Part shown: piece by piece, positions 29,460 to 56,041 of the stretch
How positions within the stretch are numbered: position 1 is the first letter of the stretch
Layout: each line of letters opens with the position of its first letter
Origin: Nitrosopumilus sp.
GTDB taxonomy: Archaea; Thermoproteota; Nitrososphaeria; Nitrososphaerales; Nitrosopumilaceae
Length of the DNA: 64,000 nucleotides
Assembly: GCA_965207075.1 (NCBI GenBank)
Contig: CBDBLO010000002.1
Location: 2,080,001 to 2,144,000, forward strand
Direction: 5' to 3'
Translations under genes and position numbers: made by a program
Notes under the pieces: model-generated
Databases searched by the model: none
The model's input: only the letters and a program-made list of their open reading frames with translations
Told to the model about the DNA's origin: nothing

Positions 29460-30836
29460 ATGGGCTCGGATGTCACTCTCAACGTGGGGTTTGACGACAC
29501 GGACTCGCGCGCGGGGATGTGCACCACGTACCTCGCGTACGTGATTGCGGGGTCGCTCCGGAAGGGGGGCGCGGCAGAGTTTCTTGACTATCCGAGGCTG
29601 GTCAGGTTCAACCCCAACGTCCCGTGGAAGACGCGGGGAAACGGCGCGGTGTCCATGCGCATCAGGACAGGCGATCCCGGGCGCGTCAAGGACGAGATAC
29701 GCAGGACCGTGTTCGAGCACGCGGACGTCGCGCGCGGCGCAAACCCCGGACTGGTGTTCTGGGAGGGGGACGACGTGCCGGAGCCGCTTGCCGGGTTCGG
29801 CCGGCTGGCGCTCTGGCAGCTCATAGGCAGGGCGGACGCCAGGGGCTTTGCAAGGGACAACGGCCTGGAGATCCACTACATGGGGAACGGCCAGGGGCTG
29901 GTCGGGGCCATCGGCTCCACCGGATACCAGTGGGACGACCACACGATGGAGCTGCTCTCGTACCGCCGCGCCGAGATGTGCGGGACCAGGCGCGTCGTGT
30001 CGCCTGCAAGCGTAAAAAGCATGCAGGATCGCACGTTTCCCAACACGTTCAACAGCTATGACAAGAGGAGCGGCCGGGTGCTGATCACGCCGCGGGGGCC
30101 GGACCCCGTGTTTTACGGGATACGCGGCGAGGACGCCGCCTCGCTTGTGGCCGCCTCGCGTATGATCAGGAGCGACGAGTCCCCGCTGGGGTACATGATC
30201 TTCCGAACGAACCAGGGGACGGGCGCGCACCTGCGCAACGAGCTGACGGAGGAGTACATGAGGCCCTTTGCGTCCGGGTGGATACGCGGTGCTGTGACCG
30301 ACAGTCCCATAGTGGAGCGCGGCGGGCACGTGTTCTTCGAGGTGGAATCGGGCGGGCGGCGGCGGCGGCGGCAGCAGCAACGGCGGCAACTGAGAGTCAG
30401 GTGCGCCGTGTACAAACCCACCGGGATGACGGGCGTGGCCCGCCGCCTCGTGGCCGGCGACGAGGTGCGCGTGGGAGGCGGCGTCCGGAAGGCCTCAAGG
30501 GGCCGCCAGAGGGTGCTCAACGCAGAGTACATCGAGGTCGTATCGCTTGCCGACGACTCGTACCTCGCAAACCCCGCGTGCCCCGCATGCGGCAAGAGGA
30601 TGAAGTCAAAGGGGGTGGGCCAGGGATTCGAGTGCGCCAGGTGCGAGGACAGCCGCGCGGCGTCAAAGGTGGAGGTAAGAAAGAAGCGCGCGGTGAGGAC
30701 AGGGCTGCACATTCCGGACGCGGGGGCCCAGCGCCACCTGACCAGGCCCGTACAGAGGCTGGAGAGGCGGAACCGCGCGGGGGCGCCCGACCGCGGCCTC
30801 GAGTGGCTCCACGTTTATGATAATAGCGGGGAGTAG
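29460..30836 (+). CDS. tiaS: tRNA(Ile2) agmatidine synthetase
   Basis: GFDDTDS, GMCTTY, PNVPWKTRGNG, TNQGT, GGHV, CPACGKRMKSKG, RHLTRP. Confidence 0.93.
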   Translation: MGSDVTLNVGFDDTDSRAGMCTTYLAYVIAGSLRKGGAAEFLDYPRLVRFNPNVPWKTRGNGAVSMRIRTGDPGRVKDEIRRTVFEHADVARGANPGLVFWEGDDVPEPLAGFGRLALWQLIGRADARGFARDNGLEIHYMGNGQGLVGAIGSTGYQWDDHTMELLSYRRAEMCGTRRVVSPASVKSMQDRTFPNTFNSYDKRSGRVLITPRGPDPVFYGIRGEDAASLVAASRMIRSDESPLGYMIFRTNQGTGAHLRNELTEEYMRPFASGWIRGAVTDSPIVERGGHVFFEVESGGRRRRRQQQRRQLRVRCAVYKPTGMTGVARRLVAGDEVRVGGGVRKASRGRQRVLNAEYIEVVSLADDSYLANPACPACGKRMKSKGVGQGFECARCEDSRAASKVEVRKKRAVRTGLHIPDAGAQRHLTRPVQRLERRNRAGAPDRGLEWLHVYDNSGE

Positions 30837-30913
30837 ACTTGAACTACTGATCTGCGGGTTATGAGCCCGCCGGGATGACCTAGCCCTCAAGTGTCTGACT
30901 TCCCCACCCCGCT
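30824..30913 (-). tRNA. Initiator tRNA-Met(CAT) with an approximately 15-nt D-arm insertion (putative non-canonical intron)
   Basis: A1-T72 acceptor AGCGGGG/CCCCGCT-A, GCGGG-CTCATAA-CCCGC anticodon arm, T-loop TTCAAGT, 90 nt in total. TATATA at 30937-30942. Confidence 0.9.
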
Positions 30914-31019
30914 AGAGAATGGCGGCACCCGCGCCGTATATACGCCTTTCAATACGAGCGTCCGCGGCCCGGAGTTTGTGCACACACTGGGGGCCCGCCC
31001 GCAGACGTGCCCGACTGCT

Positions 31020-49093: not shown

Positions 49094-49167
49094 GGGTCTA
49101 TGGCGCAGCCAGGTAGCGCTCAGGACTCTTAATCCTGCTGTCGTGGGTTCGAATCCCTCTAGACCCG
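49094..49167 (+). tRNA. tRNA-Lys(CTT)
   Basis: GGGTCTA/TAGACCC-G acceptor, CAGGA-CTCTTAA-TCCTG anticodon arm, TTCGAAT T-loop. TTATAATA upstream. Confidence 0.95.
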
Positions 49168-49337
49168 CTACTATACCGGTACTCTTTTGGGCTCCGGTAA
49201 GTGGAAAGAATGATCACAGGTAGGAAGGAAAGGCCCGAAAGGCGAAAACCGGGGGAGGGGTGTCACGGCGGCGCGCAGGGGCGCGGGACTCGCCCTTCCA
49301 CAGGGGCTTTTATGGGATCGGGGGTGTGCGTCCGACC

Positions 49338-50639
49338 ATGATTAAGATTACAAAAGAGGAGTTGAGGGACGGTGGGTCTGCCGCATCATGTACCGAGCCC
49401 CTCGACCTGTTCTGGCAGGGCATCAGGGCCGAGGAGACCCGCAAGACATACACGCGCACGCTCAGGCGCCTGCTGTGCGGCGCGCTGGAGGAGGTGCTGG
49501 AGGGCACGTTTGAGGAGCGCGCGGCGCAGCTTGTGCGGCTGGGAAAGGACGACCCGAACCGCACGCTGAACCTCGTGCTGCGCATATCAGGAAAGATTCG
49601 GGCGAGGAGCTCGCTGCCGCACGACCACCCGGACTACTTTAACCCGTCGGGCGTCCCCAACTACTTCAAGCCGCTCAAAAAGCTGTTCGACATGAACGGC
49701 GTTTCAATGCCGTGGAAGCGCATCTACTCGACGTTCCCCGAGTCCGACAACATCACGGAATCGCGGGGATGGACCCGGGGGGAGATACAGTCCATGCTCC
49801 GGTTTGCCAAGGGGTCGGCCGACAGGGCCGTCATACTGGTCGCCGCCAGTTCGGGCATAAGGGCCGGGGGGTTTGAGCTGCTGCGGTGGTCGGATCTCAG
49901 GCCGATATACCGCGCCGCTGCCGGCGGGGGCGGTAGCAGTGACGATGGGAACAGAAGCAGCAGCGACGTCCTCAGCTTTGAGCATGGTGGAGGCGACGGC
50001 ACTGCGGCGGAGCCGGTCTGCGCCATGCTTACCGTATACGCCCGCACAAACGCAAGCTATCCGGCGTTCGTCACGCCGGAGGCGTACGCGGCGGTAATGG
50101 ATTACCGGGGCGTGTGGGCCTCGGAGATCGGCAGGCCCCCGGAGCCCGGCGATCCCATCTTCAAGAGGGCCGGAAGCCTGCCCGCAAAGGCCACCACCCC
50201 GCTGATAAAGAGGAGGATCGAGAAGGTGGCCGGCGCGGCGGGCCTGCGCGCCTCCGGCAGAAAGTCCCGCAACCTGTTTGACGTGCCCATAATGAACGGC
50301 TTCCGCCGGTTCTGGAACAAGGCGTGCAAGGAGTCCTCCTCGAGGGAGTCGCCCCTGTCGTCCCTGATAAGAAAGGAGTACATGATGGGGCATGTCGGCC
50401 TGGTGAGCCTGGACCGCAACTACTTCAAGACGCACGTGATGGAGCTTGCAGAAGAGTACCTGCAGTCGGTGCCGCACCTGACCATAGACGACGCGGTCAG
50501 GCTGCGGCTGGCAAACGCGAGGCAGTCGGAGAGGATAGGGCTGCTGGAGGATGAAAAGGACAGGGAGATTGCAAAGCTGCGCCTCATGGTCGAGCAGCTT
50601 GCGGGCAGGATCGAGTCCTACTCCTCCCGGGGGATCTGA
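49338..50639 (+). CDS. Tyrosine recombinase/integrase
   Basis: SSGIRAGG (R), NGFRRF (HxxR variant with N), MMGH, DRNY (Y). C-terminal coiled coil. Confidence 0.9.
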   Translation: MIKITKEELRDGGSAASCTEPLDLFWQGIRAEETRKTYTRTLRRLLCGALEEVLEGTFEERAAQLVRLGKDDPNRTLNLVLRISGKIRARSSLPHDHPDYFNPSGVPNYFKPLKKLFDMNGVSMPWKRIYSTFPESDNITESRGWTRGEIQSMLRFAKGSADRAVILVAASSGIRAGGFELLRWSDLRPIYRAAAGGGGSSDDGNRSSSDVLSFEHGGGDGTAAEPVCAMLTVYARTNASYPAFVTPEAYAAVMDYRGVWASEIGRPPEPGDPIFKRAGSLPAKATTPLIKRRIEKVAGAAGLRASGRKSRNLFDVPIMNGFRRFWNKACKESSSRESPLSSLIRKEYMMGHVGLVSLDRNYFKTHVMELAEEYLQSVPHLTIDDAVRLRLANARQSERIGLLEDEKDREIAKLRLMVEQLAGRIESYSSRGI

Positions 50640-50669: not shown

Positions 50670-50810
50670 ATGGACAGTAAGACATGCCCCGTATGTTTGC
50701 GCGCCTTGGACCTGCATTCTGACGCGGAGGTCATCGCCTGCGCACGCGCCTTGACATCCCGCACGCACGCGGAAAAACCGCGCCAGACCGCGCAGGAATT
50801 CACGCACTGA
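50670..50810 (+). CDS. Small CxxC-H-C zinc-finger protein (46 aa)
   Basis: MDSKTCPVCLRALDLHSDAEVIACARALT... TTTTTAT about 25 nt upstream. Below the track cutoff. Confidence 0.6.
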   Translation: MDSKTCPVCLRALDLHSDAEVIACARALTSRTHAEKPRQTAQEFTH

Positions 50811-50945
50811 TCGACGTAGGCGCCAAGTCCCGCCGGGTACTGCTTCCAATTCGTGATACGCGGCCTTGCGAGACGGCGATACCGTACTTGGATCGTACTA
50901 TGTGAAGTATGCGCGCACTTAAAAGGGGGCAGATCGCAATGGAGA

Positions 50946-51029
50946 CGGCGGCCGGGGGATTCGAACCCCCATGCGCTTGCGCGCGGCGATTCAGGAGATC
51001 GCTGCCAAACCGGGTATGGCGTAGCTGCC
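50946..51029 (-). tRNA. Atypical tRNA-like gene: long variable arm, G73, anticodon CCT
   Basis: GGCAGCT AC GCCA TACCCGGTT TGGC A GCGAT CTCCTGA ATCGC C GCGC GCAA GCGC AT GGGGG TTCGAAT CCCCC GGCCGCC G (84 nt). Confidence 0.7.
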
Positions 51030-51148
51030 ACCTATTCCCTACGGGCGTGCTGCGCTTTTATCCGTAACTTTCCAAGGTGAGGCTTCCAATTCGTGATACG
51101 CGGGCGGCGGTCTCGATCTTTTATATGGATCTGGGGTCTGGAGATCGC

Positions 51149-51610
51149 ATGGGCTACAAGAAGGGAGACTTGTGCCCCAAGTGCGAGAGCGGCATATTAG
51201 TCGTAGGTGGCGAGGTAACAGTATCCGGGGAGGACGGCGACGAGTGGTCTCGGAAGATCATCCTAAGGTGCCCCAACTGTGACCAGCGTCCTCTTTCCGT
51301 CGAGCTCGAAGGCCTTGTTAGGAACCGGGAACACGTGGCGCCAAAGGTGGACTTTGTCAGATTTGAGGAGATGTGCGAGCTCCTGCTCAAGTTCCTTAAA
51401 GAATCTGACGGATGGCTCCTGCTGGATGCCATAGTGTCACAGTGCTTTACGGGCAAAAAGGGCAAAGACGGGAGGCTGTTCCTGTCAGACCGGGAGGACT
51501 GGAACACGGTGAAAGGCATAGTGGTGTATTTCGAGCTTGACGGGCGGTTGGAATCCAGGCCGCACAACGGCAATCCGGAGCTGAGAGAGTACAAGTGGAA
51601 GATACCATGA
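51149..51610 (+). CDS. Zn-ribbon protein with possible winged-helix C-domain
   Basis: CPKC...CPNC. TTTTATAT about 25 nt upstream. Confidence 0.75.
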   Translation: MGYKKGDLCPKCESGILVVGGEVTVSGEDGDEWSRKIILRCPNCDQRPLSVELEGLVRNREHVAPKVDFVRFEEMCELLLKFLKESDGWLLLDAIVSQCFTGKKGKDGRLFLSDREDWNTVKGIVVYFELDGRLESRPHNGNPELREYKWKIP

Positions 51611-51662
51611 ATCCGTGATACGCAGATCGCAGGCGGGGGAAAGGAGAGATCGCAAGACTTGA

Positions 51663-51971
51663 TCAACTCCAACCCAAAACCGCCATGATACTGGCTATGG
51701 ATCCCGCGACTGCCAGCAGGTAGATGATGTACTGGAGGAGCGGGCTGATTTTGCGTATGTCTTCGGAGAAGATGTCGATGTCCGGGTGTGTTTCGCTGTA
51801 CTTGGCCAGCGCTCGCCTGAAGGCCTTCTGGTTCCTTGTCCTCCGTTCCCACTTGTAGTGGTTGTGCCTCGGGGCTACCTGCACCTGTGCGATGGTCAGG
51901 CCTTCCACCTTCAACAGGCGTTCAAGCTCATCGCACATGGCTTGATCCAGGGCCTTGTCCTTCAGGGACAT
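51663..51971 (-). CDS. Hypothetical protein with C-terminal TM helix
   Basis: MSLKDKALDQ...LLQYIIYLLAVAGSIASIMAVLGWS. Confidence 0.6.
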   Translation of the reverse strand: MSLKDKALDQAMCDELERLLKVEGLTIAQVQVAPRHNHYKWERRTRNQKAFRRALAKYSETHPDIDIFSEDIRKISPLLQYIIYLLAVAGSIASIMAVLGWS

Positions 51972-52009
51972 GCGTAGACGCACGTTGGATGGTGAGCAGC
52001 GCCTTTTGC

Positions 52010-52252
52010 TTAATTTTTGATAGGAAACTCGACCGTCTGGACCTTGTTCCTGCACCTTTCGAAAATTTCCCTGGCGATCTTTTCCGACTGTTTTTCATCG
52101 TCAATGCTGATCTTTGCAGACAAGTCGAAGGAGGGCGAGTTTGGCAGATCCTTGAGGCTTACAAACCCCATCTTTTTCAAGGTCTCCTTGACGCTTGGAC
52201 ACGCCTGGCTCTCATTGCAAAGTATCCGAAACTCATATTCCATTTCCATCAC
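52010..52252 (-). CDS. Small hypothetical protein (possible ferredoxin-like fold)
   Basis: 80 aa with an alternating beta/alpha pattern. Confidence 0.55.
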   Translation of the reverse strand: MMEMEYEFRILCNESQACPSVKETLKKMGFVSLKDLPNSPSFDLSAKISIDDEKQSEKIAREIFERCRNKVQTVEFPIKN

Positions 52253-52472
52253 TATTCCTATGATCCCGGGCTACTCCGGGATGAAGGGGTCATACGTGGT
52301 GCAGGGCGAGCACTGGCCCGGCGAGCACCAGCTTGAGGCCGAGGTGTACAGGCACGGCTATCTTGCAAAGTCCTATTATTCGGAACCGTTTACGCTGGAA
52401 TGAGCGTGGCTTCTAATACCTCTTCATTTTTCAAAGGTTTTTGCTTCTGTGAGAGGAAGGGGAGGTGATAAG

Positions 52473-52844
52473 ATGGAAGACGAAACTGCAACGGATGACT
52501 TTGTGAGCCATTTCAAAGATCTAATCAAGAACCTAGACCTACACAAAGGCAAAATCGTTTATCACGACGGAATGGTAGGCATTGGAATCAATGTTCGCGA
52601 CAGCCTTTCAAAAATAAGCAAGGATGACGGAGACCACATAGACGAATGCGTAGTCGAGATGAATGAAAAAATCAAAGATCTAGGTGCTTCAGCAAGACAG
52701 GTTTCGGGCAACTATAACGACATGCCCACCCGTCTCGAATGCGTGATAAGGGCTGGCCACATACGCGATCTGGCAGACACGATAATAGAGCGTGCTGGTG
52801 CCGTGCCAACGGAAGAATACGTGCCCAGCACCGGTACTCCCTAG
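52473..52844 (+). CDS. Hypothetical helical protein
   Basis: Strong SD-like GGAGGTGA at 52461-52468 before the ATG. Confidence 0.65.
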   Translation: MEDETATDDFVSHFKDLIKNLDLHKGKIVYHDGMVGIGINVRDSLSKISKDDGDHIDECVVEMNEKIKDLGASARQVSGNYNDMPTRLECVIRAGHIRDLADTIIERAGAVPTEEYVPSTGTP

Positions 52845-52993
52845 TTCCTACTCTGACTGCTACGACGCTCCATTTCGAGCTCACGTTCCCTGTTTCTTTT
52901 TTCCCTTTCTTCCCTGTTTGGGAACCCAAGGGCGTCAAACAGGTTGTCAATGGCTTCTTCTACGTCATAGCCGACACGAGGTTTTTGACTCAT
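52841..52993 (-). CDS. Small charged protein (50 aa)
   Basis: MSQKPRVGYDVEEAIDNLFDALGFPNREEREKRNRERELEMERRSSQSRN. Lies downstream of the inverted 26-bp site. Confidence 0.5.
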   Translation of the reverse strand: MSQKPRVGYDVEEAIDNLFDALGFPNREEREKRNRERELEMERRSSQSRN

Positions 52994-53094
52994 TGTTTCG
53001 CCCACCCCGTGCCTGCGTTTCCGAGAAGATCGCGCCGCGTATCACGAATTGGAAGCAGTGCCTCCCGCCGCGCTCTTTATAAAGTTCCAACATA

Positions 53095-54046
53095 GTTACC
53101 CGCAAACTTTCATAGAACTCTATGAAAGTTTGCGGGTAACCTCCGCGGCACCACATGCACATGGGCAGGAAGTCAGGCAGTGGGCGCCAAGTGCCTCGGG
53201 CTTGGCTGGCGCACGGATGGCGGGCCTGCCGCATGCCCGCCGTAGGCGGGACGGGCTGGCGGGATCCGGGGCGCAGCGCGTGTCAGGAGGCGGCTGCCGC
53301 CGCCGACGATGATCAAGCAGGAAGCGAGCGTTGCGATGCAGGTACGCCCCGTCGCCACCGCCATACCCGCAAACAATCATAGAGCTCTATGACAGTTTGC
53401 GGGTATCTGCCGCATGCCCGCGGGCGCCCGTGCAGGCCGCCGCAGGTGCGGAACCAGCCTCTCCCGTGACGGGCGTATCTGCTAGAAGGTGACAAAGAAA
53501 TCTGACATTCTGCACGTTTGCCACCGTCCGCCCCGGCCTGCCCGCAACCTGCCCCGTATGCTTGCGGCATCAGACGCTAGGTTCACTGTGGTACACTTTA
53601 ACAGCGGGAGGCAGGGCGAGCCAGCGGGACCCGGGGCGCAGCATGTGCTCGGAGGTGGCTGCTGCTGCTGCCGGCTATGGTCAAGTCGGAAACGGTGTTC
53701 CGACGCAGGTACGCTCTCCTCCCCTCCCTCCCTCCCTCCCTCCCCCCCCCCCCGACGCCGCCGACTGTTACCCGCAAACCGTCATAGAATTCTATGACAC
53801 TTTGCGGGTAACTGCCGCATGCCCGTAGCACCGCACGCACACGAGCAGGAAGTCAGGCAGTGGGCGCCAAGTGCTTCCGGCCCTGGCCGGCGTACGGACG
53901 GCGGGCCTGCCGCATGCCCGCGGGCGCCCATGCAGGCCGCCGCAGGTGCGGAACCAGCCTCTCCCGTGACGGGCGTATCTGCTAGAAGGTGACAAAGAAA
54001 TCTGACATTCTGCACGTTTGCCACCGTCCGCCCCGGCCTGCCCGCA
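53095..54046. repeat. Three 44-46-bp palindromes within duplicated non-coding blocks
   Basis: Palindromes at 53095-53140, 53363-53406 and 53767-53812. 140-bp duplication 53407-53546 = 53907-54046 with one mismatch. 30-bp identity 53165-53194 = 53845-53874. Confidence 0.92.
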
Positions 54047-54525: not shown

Positions 54526-56011
54526 AATTCTGTTTCCTAATTCCGCCGTGGGCATCCGCCCCTGCGGCTTTGAGGCAGGCATGCGTTAATTTGTTCAATA
54601 AAATTTGACAAAACGGCCAAAGGGCGCTCATGCAGGCGTTGAAATGCTTATGGCGAAAGTCAGACACGATGTATCCCACATCTGCGTGCCCAGACAGACG
54701 CCAACGCCTGTTCGCGGCGTCGGCATTTAACCATGACTCGATCCCCCCTCCGGGCGCCTGCCGGGGCGGCGCGGCGCGGCCAGCCCGGGGGAATTCGGCG
54801 TACTGGAGGGGGCGGAGCCGCCCATGAGCCGGACGCGGGGCGCCGCAGCGGCGGGAACGGACAACGAAAAGTACGTCAGGCGCGGCGCGGACCTGTTCAT
54901 AGAGTATGATCCAGGGTGGGAGGATGACGTGGGGCGCGCAAACGAGGGCAAGGTCGGCGCCCCGTACCGGTACGCGGAGACGCTCATCATGCTGGCCGCC
55001 GCCTTCAGGGGCGCGCTGGGGATCCGGTACAGACAGCTCGAGGGGATGGTCGGGAAGATGGTAGGCGGATCCAACACGCCCGCATACAGCCAGCTGTACA
55101 AGCGGATCAACAGGCTTGACGCGGACATCCGCCGGAACCCGGACGGGATGGTGACGGTGTCGGACAGGAAGGGGTCGCGGATGCTGGCGCTCGACGCAAG
55201 CGGGCTCAAGCAGCACAACAGGGGCGAGTGGATGAGGGCCAAGTGGAGGGTTAGGCGGGGCTTTGTAAAGATGCACGTGCTGGTCGACACGGAGACCATG
55301 AAGATACTCGCGCTGGAGGTCACGGACGATGCCGTGGGGGACTCGACCATGTTCGAGTCGCTGCTCGGACAGGTAGTGGACGCGGGCGGCGCGCGGCACA
55401 CGGAGCCGCCCGCCGCGCCACGTTCCGGCGGCGGCCCGAGATACGAAAACCTTCTCGCGTCCGGCATCCCCCCGCTCGCGTCATTCTTCCCGGGCGCCCC
55501 CCGGAACCGGGCCGCGCCCGACCTCCTGCTTGGCGACGCCGCGTACGGATCAAGGAAGAACGTGGCCGCGTGCGCGCGGGCAGGGGTGACCCCTGGCATT
55601 GCACACACCATCAACGTGACGGCGCGTGGCAGGGGATCCGGCGACGCGTGGGGCATATCCGTAAGGGACCAGATGGGCGGAAGCCCCGACGCGACGCGCC
55701 TGGACCTGATGGGCAGGGAGGAGAAGAGGGAGAACCAGGCGTACTGGAAGGCCCGCATAGGCTACGGCCACCGCTGGATCGCGGAGGCCGTGTTTTCGGT
55801 ATTCAAGCGCCTGTTCGGCGAGCACCTGATGGCCCTCAAGTGGGAGAACATCGTGCAGGAGATAAGGCTCAAGGTGATCCAGTACAACAAGTGGAGGGAT
55901 GAGTCGATAGCGCGCGAGGCGGGAGGCGGGACTTTCTGATGGTGTGACGACCATGTCGTCGTCCGATAGGAATCCAACAGGCACCCAGACGGCGAATTAG
56001 GAAACAGAATT
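54526..56011 (+). mobile_element. IS5-family insertion sequence (IS903/ISH1-like), 1486 bp
   Basis: Perfect 18-bp TIRs AATTCTGTTTCCTAATTC (54526-54543 and 55994-56011). 8-bp TSD TGATGCGC (54518-54525 and 56012-56019). Confidence 0.92.
54824..55939 (+). CDS. IS5-family DDE transposase
   Basis: ALDASGLK, GEW, KMHVLVD, GDAAY, YGHRWIAEAVFSVFKRLFG. Confidence 0.92.
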   Translation: MSRTRGAAAAGTDNEKYVRRGADLFIEYDPGWEDDVGRANEGKVGAPYRYAETLIMLAAAFRGALGIRYRQLEGMVGKMVGGSNTPAYSQLYKRINRLDADIRRNPDGMVTVSDRKGSRMLALDASGLKQHNRGEWMRAKWRVRRGFVKMHVLVDTETMKILALEVTDDAVGDSTMFESLLGQVVDAGGARHTEPPAAPRSGGGPRYENLLASGIPPLASFFPGAPRNRAAPDLLLGDAAYGSRKNVAACARAGVTPGIAHTINVTARGRGSGDAWGISVRDQMGGSPDATRLDLMGREEKRENQAYWKARIGYGHRWIAEAVFSVFKRLFGEHLMALKWENIVQEIRLKVIQYNKWRDESIAREAGGGTF

Positions 56012-56041
56012 TGATGCGCCATATCTACTTAAGGGACAAAA

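Follow-up and report, generated by a model that had tools for sequence, protein, structure and literature searches.

A serine-type tRNA gene with an arginine anticodon in a transposon-like element of an ammonia-oxidising archaeon, and a genus-wide set of comparable genes

Main findings

The 64-kb window considered here (C2:2080001-2144000 of a 2.23-Mb, 60% G+C Nitrosopumilus sp. genome, which we label G000 and whose contigs we call C1 and C2) contains, as cargo of a transposon-like insertion, a transfer RNA (tRNA) gene that joins a serine-type body with a long variable arm to the arginine anticodon CCU. Judged from its sequence, this candidate is a real tRNA gene of foreign origin, neither a chance fold nor a copy of a host tRNA. 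It matches in kind a set of Ser-shaped tRNA genes with non-serine anticodons that we identified in other genomes of the genus, yet within that set it is a divergent outlier. We tentatively propose, as something possible rather than probable, that it is a transcribed mobile-element tRNA that could be charged by seryl-tRNA synthetase (SerRS) and could read AGG as serine. The host is an ammonia-oxidising archaeon, as its genome carries an archaeal amoA gene (E 1e-116); archaeal tRNA introns are present as well.

Anatomy and signals of the tRNA gene

The gene and its flanking signals are as follows.
50946..51029, minus strand: class-II (long variable arm) tRNA gene with Ser-type body, anticodon CCT, G37 and G73 (from the sequence, ARAGORN and genus models)
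51056..51061, minus strand: TATA-like box ATAAAA, 27-32 nt upstream of the mature 5' end
50921..50924, minus strand: TTTT run, a putative archaeal terminator, at +22 to +25 after G73

On the reverse complement of 50946-51029 the sequence forms the cloverleaf that the preliminary description had drawn, 84 nt long with paired arms, anticodon CCT, A8, an A4-C69 mismatch and G73. Its acceptor/T arrangement is 7/5. The 7-bp acceptor stem (GGCAGCU/GGCCGCC) opens with G1-C72 and includes the A4·C69 mismatch and a U7·G66 pair, and is followed by A and C at positions 8 and 9. The D arm (GCCA-UACCCGGUU-UGGC) has a 9-nt loop, the anticodon arm (GCGAU-CUCCUGA-AUCGC) presents CCU with G37 next to U36, the 15-nt variable region (C + GCGC-GCAA-GCGC + AU) has a 4-bp stem and a 4-nt loop, and the T arm reads GGGGG-UUCGAAU-CCCCC. 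In all, 24 of the 25 pairs are standard, and the arms, U33, the 7-nt anticodon loop and a GTTCRAnYC T loop are those of a tRNA, with A4·C69 as the single exception. ARAGORN calls a tRNA-Arg(cct) at 50944-51030 (minus strand); as a chance control, 40 dinucleotide shuffles of the window (2.56 Mb) yielded one ARAGORN call. The minimum free energy fold is the cloverleaf, with a z-score against shuffles of -1.5, which is small in this G+C-rich sequence.

The ATAAAA box (51061-51056), placed about 27-32 nt upstream in the preliminary description too, lies at the host-typical spacing: the A+T content upstream of 44 trusted host tRNA genes peaks at this position. Downstream, the TCTCCAT trailer before the TTTT run resembles the trailers of host tRNA genes without an encoded CCA; CCA is not encoded at the candidate, as is the case for about half of the host tRNA genes.

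Three other accounts of this stretch were considered and set aside. A plus-strand peptide gene over the tRNA (50909-51067) is unsupported, and an 8/4 or 9/3 fold cannot form, as A8 and C65 are not complementary and the T stem is 5 bp long. The variable arm might also be imagined as a non-canonical intron of a housekeeping tRNA-Arg(CCU), but that gene exists elsewhere in the host and the arm fits serine geometry; moreover, a bulge-helix-bulge intron would need more than about 10 nt.

Isotype of the tRNA body

Two covariance models were built from genes of the same genus, R1 from 17 distinct tRNA-Ser genes and R2 from 23 tRNA-Leu genes. The scores in bits are given below.
Candidate: R1 67.3 (full length, model positions 1-84, no gaps); R2 30.1
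Host tRNA-Ser: R1 85.9-101; R2 46.2-66
Host tRNA-Leu: R1 51.6-56.7; R2 77.7-110.4
Host tRNA-Arg(UCU): R1 46.5; R2 36.2
Host tRNA-Arg(CCU): R1 26.7; R2 19.7

The gapless alignment to R1 and the difference between the two models bear out the Ser-type body proposed earlier, with the qualification that 67.3 bits lies under the range of true genus tRNA-Ser genes (85.9-103). In D-loop length and in the geometry of the variable region (1 + 4/4/4 + 2 nt) the candidate equals the genus tRNA-Ser genes, and it resembles them further in its T arm and G73. It is unlike them in its anticodon, CCU in place of a serine anticodon (NGA or GCU), in A8, U14, A15, U21, A26, C44 and U48, in its A30-U40 pair, and in overall identity, which is 54-67% to the 17 genes. 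At pairs 2-71, 6-67 and 30-40 both sides differ from all 17 while pairing is kept. Since 24 of 25 pairs are standard and three have changed on both sides at this low identity, the candidate is not a recently decayed host gene, in keeping with the argument made earlier from its preserved stems.

Twenty unpaired columns are invariant in the genus tRNA-Ser genes, and the candidate differs at seven of these (8, 14, 15, 21, 26, 44 and 48), with the other 13 unchanged. The standard tertiary map of tRNA pairs 8-14-21, 15-48 and 26-44, and hence the seven departures comprise exactly three sets of tertiary partners: U:A:A has become A:U:U (8/14/21), G:C has become A:U (15/48) and G·U has become A·C (26/44). 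These replaced partners would be expected to preserve the fold. A rapid tally of positions 8 and 14 over 638 ARAGORN calls was set aside, since shifts in the called gene boundaries confounded it.

The host already has a normal class-I tRNA-Arg(CCU) at C2:118556-118650 (minus strand), which makes the candidate an extra CCU gene. The host gene shares the anticodon but is class I, and has a TATA box, A20, A37, a GGGAUCGAAGCCC T arm common to other host tRNA-Arg genes, and a D-loop insertion that is probably a non-canonical intron; it is missed by ARAGORN. The host also carries tRNA-Arg(UCU).

According to the identity data compiled in PMC9976931, at least in the portions relevant here, serine identity lies in the long arm and not in the anticodon; G73 is a strong and G30-C40 a weaker determinant for bacterial-type and archaeal SerRS, and LeuRS is blocked by G73 in Haloferax. 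The host has one SerRS, encoded in the C2:486183 region, with the Seryl_tRNA_N (N-terminal arm) domain. Serylation is the simplest reading of an arm with serine geometry combined with G73, as judged from the gene alone.

A genus-wide set of Ser-shaped tRNAs with non-serine anticodons

We scanned 88 other genomes of the genus with R1 at E<=1e-10. The usual count was five hits per genome, and 30 of the 88 genomes had 6-14. All hits were listed for 15 genomes, 14 of them picked for high counts and one having the usual count, and 12 of these 15 contained, between them, 39 further tRNA genes with a long arm, G73 and a non-serine anticodon. Some hits of intermediate score are ordinary genes (tRNA-Leu(UAG) with A73, tRNA-Gly, tRNA-Thr and a second tRNA-Ser(GGA)), and two further copies of the set are weak (38 bits). 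With the candidate, 42 sequences were aligned by fitting to R1. Their anticodons are GAA (16), GAU (9), UAU (4), CAG (4), CCU (3), UAA (2), UCU (2), UGU (1) and AUC (1), and correspond to Phe, Ile, Leu, Arg, Thr and Asp.

We counted as members full-length sequences that score 60-80 bits on R1, more than on R2, and have G73, A38 and a non-serine anticodon; the candidate, with its R1 and R2 scores of 67.3 and 30.1 bits, has G73, A38 and CCU. R1 (60.9-79.1) gives each of the 40 strong members a higher score than R2 does (30.1-59.2), with the largest gaps (at least 28.6 bits) in the five that have arginine anticodons; true tRNA-Leu(UAG) genes score 112.6-114.7 bits on R2. Base pairing is present in 96.8% of the cells of the 42-sequence alignment, against 66.5 +/- 1.0% in shuffles and 36-50% with slid partners. 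Covariation among homologues, which had been suggested as a check, is strong: 22 of the 25 pairs change on both sides, and cells with a double change number 338 against 95 in shuffles. G73 is found in 41 of the 42 sequences, A38 in all 42 and U33 in 41, and the T loop is canonical. The G37 of the candidate is a trait of the set, as it occurs in 16 of the 42. Each of the 13 members with flanking sequence has a TATA-like box, at about -31 to -24. Taken from sequence comparison, then, the anatomy, covariation and promoters of the set show selection for the tRNA fold and for transcription.

The host genome itself has five R1 hits, comprising four tRNA-Ser genes and the candidate, with no second member at E<=1e-10.

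The densest occurrence is in genome G788 (C2:190224-224186; L327, L328), where eight strong and two weak members lie within 35 kb (GAA five times, GAU twice, CAG once), the eight each with a conserved TTATAAA promoter and a T6 run (terminator). Between the tRNA genes of this cluster stand an MmeI-like system, an Eco57I-like gene, four N6_N4 DNA methylases, a DDE transposase and a secretion ATPase. Five other members were examined for their neighbours: three lie directly beside transposase or integrase-core genes, the remaining two beside housekeeping genes.

The carrier element

The candidate lies in an insertion with the following features.
50836..53062, no strand: transposon-like insertion, 2,227 bp, with the tRNA gene and five small open reading frames (ORFs), absent at the 92.6%-identical paralogous locus by tRNA-Lys(TTT)
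50836..50864, plus strand: left terminal inverted repeat GGTACTGCTTCCAATTCGTGATACGCGGC, 29 nt, 28/29 match to the right end
53034..53062, minus strand: right terminal inverted repeat, 29 nt, 28/29 match to the left end
50828..50835, no strand: 8-bp direct duplication TCCCGCCG, left flank, abutting the left end
53063..53070, no strand: 8-bp direct duplication TCCCGCCG, right flank, abutting the right end
51082..51103, plus strand: copy of the repeat core inside the element, 22 nt, in direct orientation, 240 nt from the left end
51149..51610, plus strand: cargo ORF, 153 aa, with two CxxC pairs (zinc-ribbon-like), an orphan whose homologue search returned only itself
51663..51974, minus strand: cargo ORF, 103 aa, an orphan in the homologue search
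52010..52252, minus strand: cargo ORF, 80 aa, no family match in profile searches
52473..52844, plus strand: cargo ORF, 123 aa, with one 57%-identical relative (P0004) on record

The element thus has both inverted ends and a target-site duplication, and its G+C content is 53% against 60% for the genome. The internal 22-nt repeat copy lies just upstream of the TATA box of ORF 51149, and the tRNA gene stands between two direct copies of the repeat. None of the five cargo ORFs has a Pfam, PHROG or NCBIfam match above noise, and all are orphans but the 123-aa ORF, for which no relatives were found in viral contigs or in 400 genomes of the host's family; a partial N-terminal relative of the 153-aa ORF occurs in genome G717. 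As no cargo ORF matches any family, no transposase of its own is recognised in the element, which is presumably mobilised in trans. A DDE_Tnp_1 insertion sequence of 1,487 bp lies nearby in the window (54526-56012), with ends partly similar to those of the element; an identical copy is found at C2:1514046-1515532 and 88%-identical copies at three more sites. The host's DDE insertion sequence also makes 8-bp target duplications, and the copy at 54526-56012 may supply the transposase for the element. No empty site was found for the insertion, the paralogous locus diverging within 6 nt of the left end.

The repeat core has about 13 copies in the genome (at most two mismatches) and is also found in 5 of 150 other genomes of the genus. 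The 16 repeat loci scanned yielded no other tRNA-like gene, only an ordinary tRNA-Val and tRNA-Met elsewhere in two of them. Palindromic units of about 85 nt, each consisting of two inverted repeats, occur at G000:C2:1513955-1514038 (single) and at about 1517690-1517855 (two in tandem), and look like miniature transposable elements. A 1.5-kb unit at G000:C2:639562-641077 and at about 1472343, also present in G691, encodes a 455-aa TnpB-like protein (Cas12f-like TNB and OrfB_IS605 domains) and is bounded by inverted repeats of the same family, with the tnpB stop codon abutting the repeat; no target duplication was seen at this unit. The notion that the candidate is part of a TnpB guide-RNA scaffold was rejected, as the TnpB element and the short repeat units share with its carrier only the terminal repeat of about 20-25 nt.

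No RNA run was listed as containing 50700-53100, and four small-share sequencing runs yielded only identical, read-length contig pieces of about 150-200 nt, with no variants; these results speak neither for nor against expression. In run X6, the right end of the element (52988 onward) is joined within a 204-nt contig to unrelated upstream sequence, which suggests that this end has another context in that sample.

The surrounding island

Upstream of the element lie two features of a wider island.
49094..49168, plus strand: tRNA-Lys(CTT), likely the attachment site of the surrounding island (ARAGORN, Rfam)
49260..50639, plus strand: divergent tyrosine recombinase (integrase), 459 aa, with 1075 relatives

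Residues R201, R349 and Y388 of the integrase are invariant among its relatives and H378 is near-invariant; of 28 aligned relatives, 9 match the Pfam Phage_integrase family, the protein itself has no match, and a PDB sequence search with it returned nothing at E<0.35. The segment 49093-50830 is 92.6% identical to a tRNA-Lys(UUU) with an integrase paralogue at C2:1912212-1913937, and that locus has no tRNA like the candidate beside it. The tRNA-Lys 3' end recurs weakly (21 nt, E 0.03) 26 kb downstream. Downstream of the element the G+C content drops to 39-54%, and a type I restriction subunit follows, 7 kb from the candidate. The candidate is thus indeed island-borne, as had been stated at the outset, in an insertion beside a tRNA-Lys-linked integrase within surroundings of lower G+C content.

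Two further observations concern repeats. Directly after the tRNA element, 53092-53943 of the window consists of arrays of a palindromic unit (AGTTACCCGCAAACTTTCATAGAAC...) about 46 nt long, and the unit recurs at C2:1914206-1915936, 2062597-2063018 and 1945760-1945962. A 175-nt copy (98.9% identical) of tRNA-Lys(CUU) and its upstream region is found at G000:C2:8198-8372, about 64 kb away across the contig ends.

Comparison with known systems

The closest parallels are the allo-tRNAs of bacteria and the nev-tRNAs of nematodes. The principal descriptions of allo-tRNAs (Mukai et al., Nucleic Acids Res 2017, PMC5389517; PMC7609411) present them as Ser-type molecules with a long variable arm and non-serine anticodons, including those for AGA/AGG, often encoded near mobile or toxin-antitoxin genes and with some copies that look inactive. 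They differ from the candidate in having a 12-bp acceptor branch folded 8/4 or 9/3 rather than 7/5, in a different tertiary core and in their bacterial hosts (Clostridia, Proteobacteria, Acidobacteria). The analogy with allo-tRNAs drawn in the preliminary description is therefore apt inasmuch as a genus-wide set of such genes exists, but it does not extend to the 8/4 or 9/3 architecture. The earlier interpretation as a whole is partly supported: the Ser body, the case against host decay and the allo-tRNA analogy speak for it, and the lack of G30-C40 and of an 8/4 or 9/3 fold weakens it.

The nev-tRNAs (Hamashima et al. 2012, PMC3333845; PMC4033280) are likewise class-II molecules with class-I anticodons, present in many copies per genome; as summarised in these articles, it is the body and not the anticodon that decides their charging, and they are reported to be expressed at low levels. 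They are eukaryotic and charged with leucine, whereas the candidate has G73 and an arm of Ser-like geometry.

No archaeal class-II tRNA with a non-cognate anticodon appeared in the pertinent sections of the allo-tRNA and nev-tRNA literature (PMC5389517, PMC7609411, PMC4033280) or in full-text literature searches, and none is mentioned in the corresponding parts of the tRNAscan-SE 2.0 paper or of the thaumarchaeal mobile-element survey (PMC6563490); archaeal cases could be present in the supplementary tRNA lists of PMC5389517 and PMC8450103.

Long-arm tRNA(CCU) genes also occur in IMG/VR. Among 80 of the 111 viral stretches matching a pattern (L021-L100), ARAGORN called tRNA-Arg(cct) at least 24 times, and at least 21 of these calls span 85-88 nt, have a long arm and present CUCCUAA as the loop; many of the contigs share a single sequence type. 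These genes resemble the candidate in being class II, in having CCU and in lying on mobile DNA, but their sequences are unrelated to it, all have A37, and several have a GGAUA D loop (by eye). The discriminator is A73 in most of them; a single gene (on L055) combines G73 with an encoded CCA.

Interpretation

If the candidate is a functional tRNA, its own TATA box would drive transcription and the transcript would be processed as host tRNAs are; the single SerRS of the host would recognise it through the long arm and G73 whatever the anticodon; and the product, Ser-tRNA(CCU), would compete weakly at AGG and so create an Arg-to-Ser ambiguity. Such a SerRS-chargeable, AGG-reading tRNA is the interpretation to which we incline, in the guarded terms used above, and this copy is probably attenuated, because it combines G37 beside U36, A30-U40, the A4·C69 mismatch and a rewired tertiary core. 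The first three of these features, together with the cost of ambiguity, are the grounds on which we argue for weak activity.

Several observations weigh against this interpretation. G37 next to U36 rules out t6A37 (N6-threonylcarbamoyladenosine). Efficient serine insertion would be costly because AGG, described as a common codon from the window, is the commonest arginine codon of the host, with 34% of arginine codons in a crude set of 692 long ORFs. The pair G30-C40 is present in 17 of 17 genus tRNA-Ser genes and replaced by A30-U40 in the candidate. On Rfam RF00005 the candidate falls below the 29-bit gathering threshold (host tRNA-Ser genes score 40.5-59.4 bits), and in a permissive Rfam scan of 601 nt its tRNA match, scoring less than 15.4 bits, was dropped under a 15.4-bit match to the T arm of transfer-messenger RNA (tmRNA), of the same clan. 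Within the set, the candidate alone of 42 sequences has A8, U14, A15 and A26, where the other 41 have U8, A14, G15 and G26, and it has U21 besides; its best identity to any other member, with which it may or may not share descent, is 57%. The R1 scores of the set (60.9-79.1) moreover overlap those of true tRNA-Leu(TAG) genes (61.7-66.1). Finally, searches for close homologues were negative: BLAST of 116 nt against 400 genomes of the phylum gave only T-arm and variable-arm matches to true tRNA-Ser; the whole element against 400 genomes of the host's family gave only a 92-nt partial match to the start of an ORF and one copy of the repeat, both in G717; an exact 25-mer of the candidate found nothing in viral contigs; and of 53 hits in a metagenome pattern search none was followed by a T arm, while none of six hits in a search of genome contigs was a long-arm CCU tRNA.

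The first alternative is that the candidate is expressed as a tRNA-shaped RNA that works outside translation and is kept by mobile or defence islands: it could divert anticodon nucleases or tRNA-modifying enzymes as a decoy or bait, or be a module for processing or regulation. We regard this as rather unlikely. With the rewired core the usual sites at 8, 15 and 26 are gone, and G37 follows U36; the gene, on its transposon-like element, lies 7 kb from the type I restriction subunit, the eight strong G788 members sit among DNA methylase, MmeI-like and Eco57I-like genes, and transposase or integrase-core genes adjoin three of the five other members. Against this, no nuclease or toxin gene is recognised in the 2.2-kb element, whose ORFs are without family match; the set keeps a translation-style anatomy in U33, A38, G73 and the T loop; and housekeeping genes adjoin the remaining two of the five.

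We assign a similarly low probability to the view that the candidate is an inactive relic, a former member of the set or a viral or plasmid tRNA drifting in a dead non-autonomous element. It is a single copy in the host genome with no close homologue, it has the A4·C69 mismatch and a very low general tRNA score, it is the sole sequence to have lost four positions that are unchanged throughout the other 41, and its element comprises orphan ORFs and no transposase. Against this stand the seven departures, which all fall in three tertiary sets and have changed together, the 13 other invariant positions left intact, and the retention of 24 of 25 pairs, the promoter-like box and the T run.

That the candidate is instead an arginine acceptor, an extra long-arm tRNA-Arg(CCU) charged by arginyl-tRNA synthetase (ArgRS) through C35 and U36, seems to us highly improbable. 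Its C35 and U36 do fit the tRNA-Arg pattern (C35 with U36 or G36), and with G73 they agree with bacterial arginine identity sets as given in the relevant part of PMC9976931; phage contigs likewise hold long-arm CCU tRNAs with tRNA-Arg-like GGAUA D loops (by eye). Yet the candidate has U20 where all seven host tRNA-Arg genes have A20 (GGA(U/G)A), its 15-nt variable region is not the short variable loop of a class-I tRNA-Arg, its body scores as serine, and the table in PMC9976931 gives the arginine determinants of Archaea as not known.

The suggestion that the sequence is an attachment or integration site and not a gene can practically be dismissed: archaeal elements often integrate into tRNA genes, as the survey cited above (PMC6563490) notes in its treatment of this point, and the integrase lies 300 nt away, but the integrase abuts tRNA-Lys(CTT) and its paralogue likewise adjoins tRNA-Lys(TTT), where a tRNA of this sort is lacking, the candidate is full length, has no host tRNA match and lies as cargo inside an inverted-repeat element, and no elements inserted into its sequence were found in other genomes.

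Other tRNA loci of the host

Three further tRNA loci were encountered in the host. At 30823-30914 of the window (minus strand), a 92-nt 'tRNA-Pro(agg)' called by ARAGORN is really a tRNA with a CAU anticodon (Met or Ile2) and an insertion near the 5' part, matched by Rfam at model positions 9-63 with 29.4 bits. Intron-less His-GTG, Thr-CGT and Cys-GCA tRNA genes, spaced by 2-3 nt, lie at G000:C2:1186525-1186747; each duplicates an isoacceptor found elsewhere, and the trio suggests a possible mobile-element tRNA array. The 45.9-kb contig C1 has, at G000:C1:26267-26343, a tRNA-Arg(UCG) identical to that at C2:67307.

Implications

Class-II tRNAs with non-cognate anticodons have so far been known from bacteria, as allo-tRNAs, and from nematodes, as nev-tRNAs. 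What this locus adds is the candidate together with 39 such genes in a single genus of archaeal ammonia-oxidisers, with 7/5 geometry, covariation and promoters of their own, and their recurrence beside transposases and restriction-modification genes. A far-reaching extension, which we offer as an improbable speculation, is that ammonia-oxidising archaea carry mobile, defence-island-linked, Ser-shaped missense tRNAs that, once expressed, would be charged by SerRS and would recode common sense codons to serine (here AGG), serving mobile elements or defence islands as a conditional weapon or addiction module, with the co-changed tertiary core of the candidate as an adaptation that would hide it from host enzymes or nucleases that act on this part of a tRNA. 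If this were true, missense tRNAs would, for example, poison translation during infection. Should SerRS charge these tRNAs, they would be natural devices for sense-codon ambiguity in Archaea, and would offer a test set, in which sequences and codons are defined and the host has a single SerRS, for the purpose of such tRNAs in general; should they act outside translation, they would point to an unknown tRNA-shaped component of archaeal mobile and defence islands.

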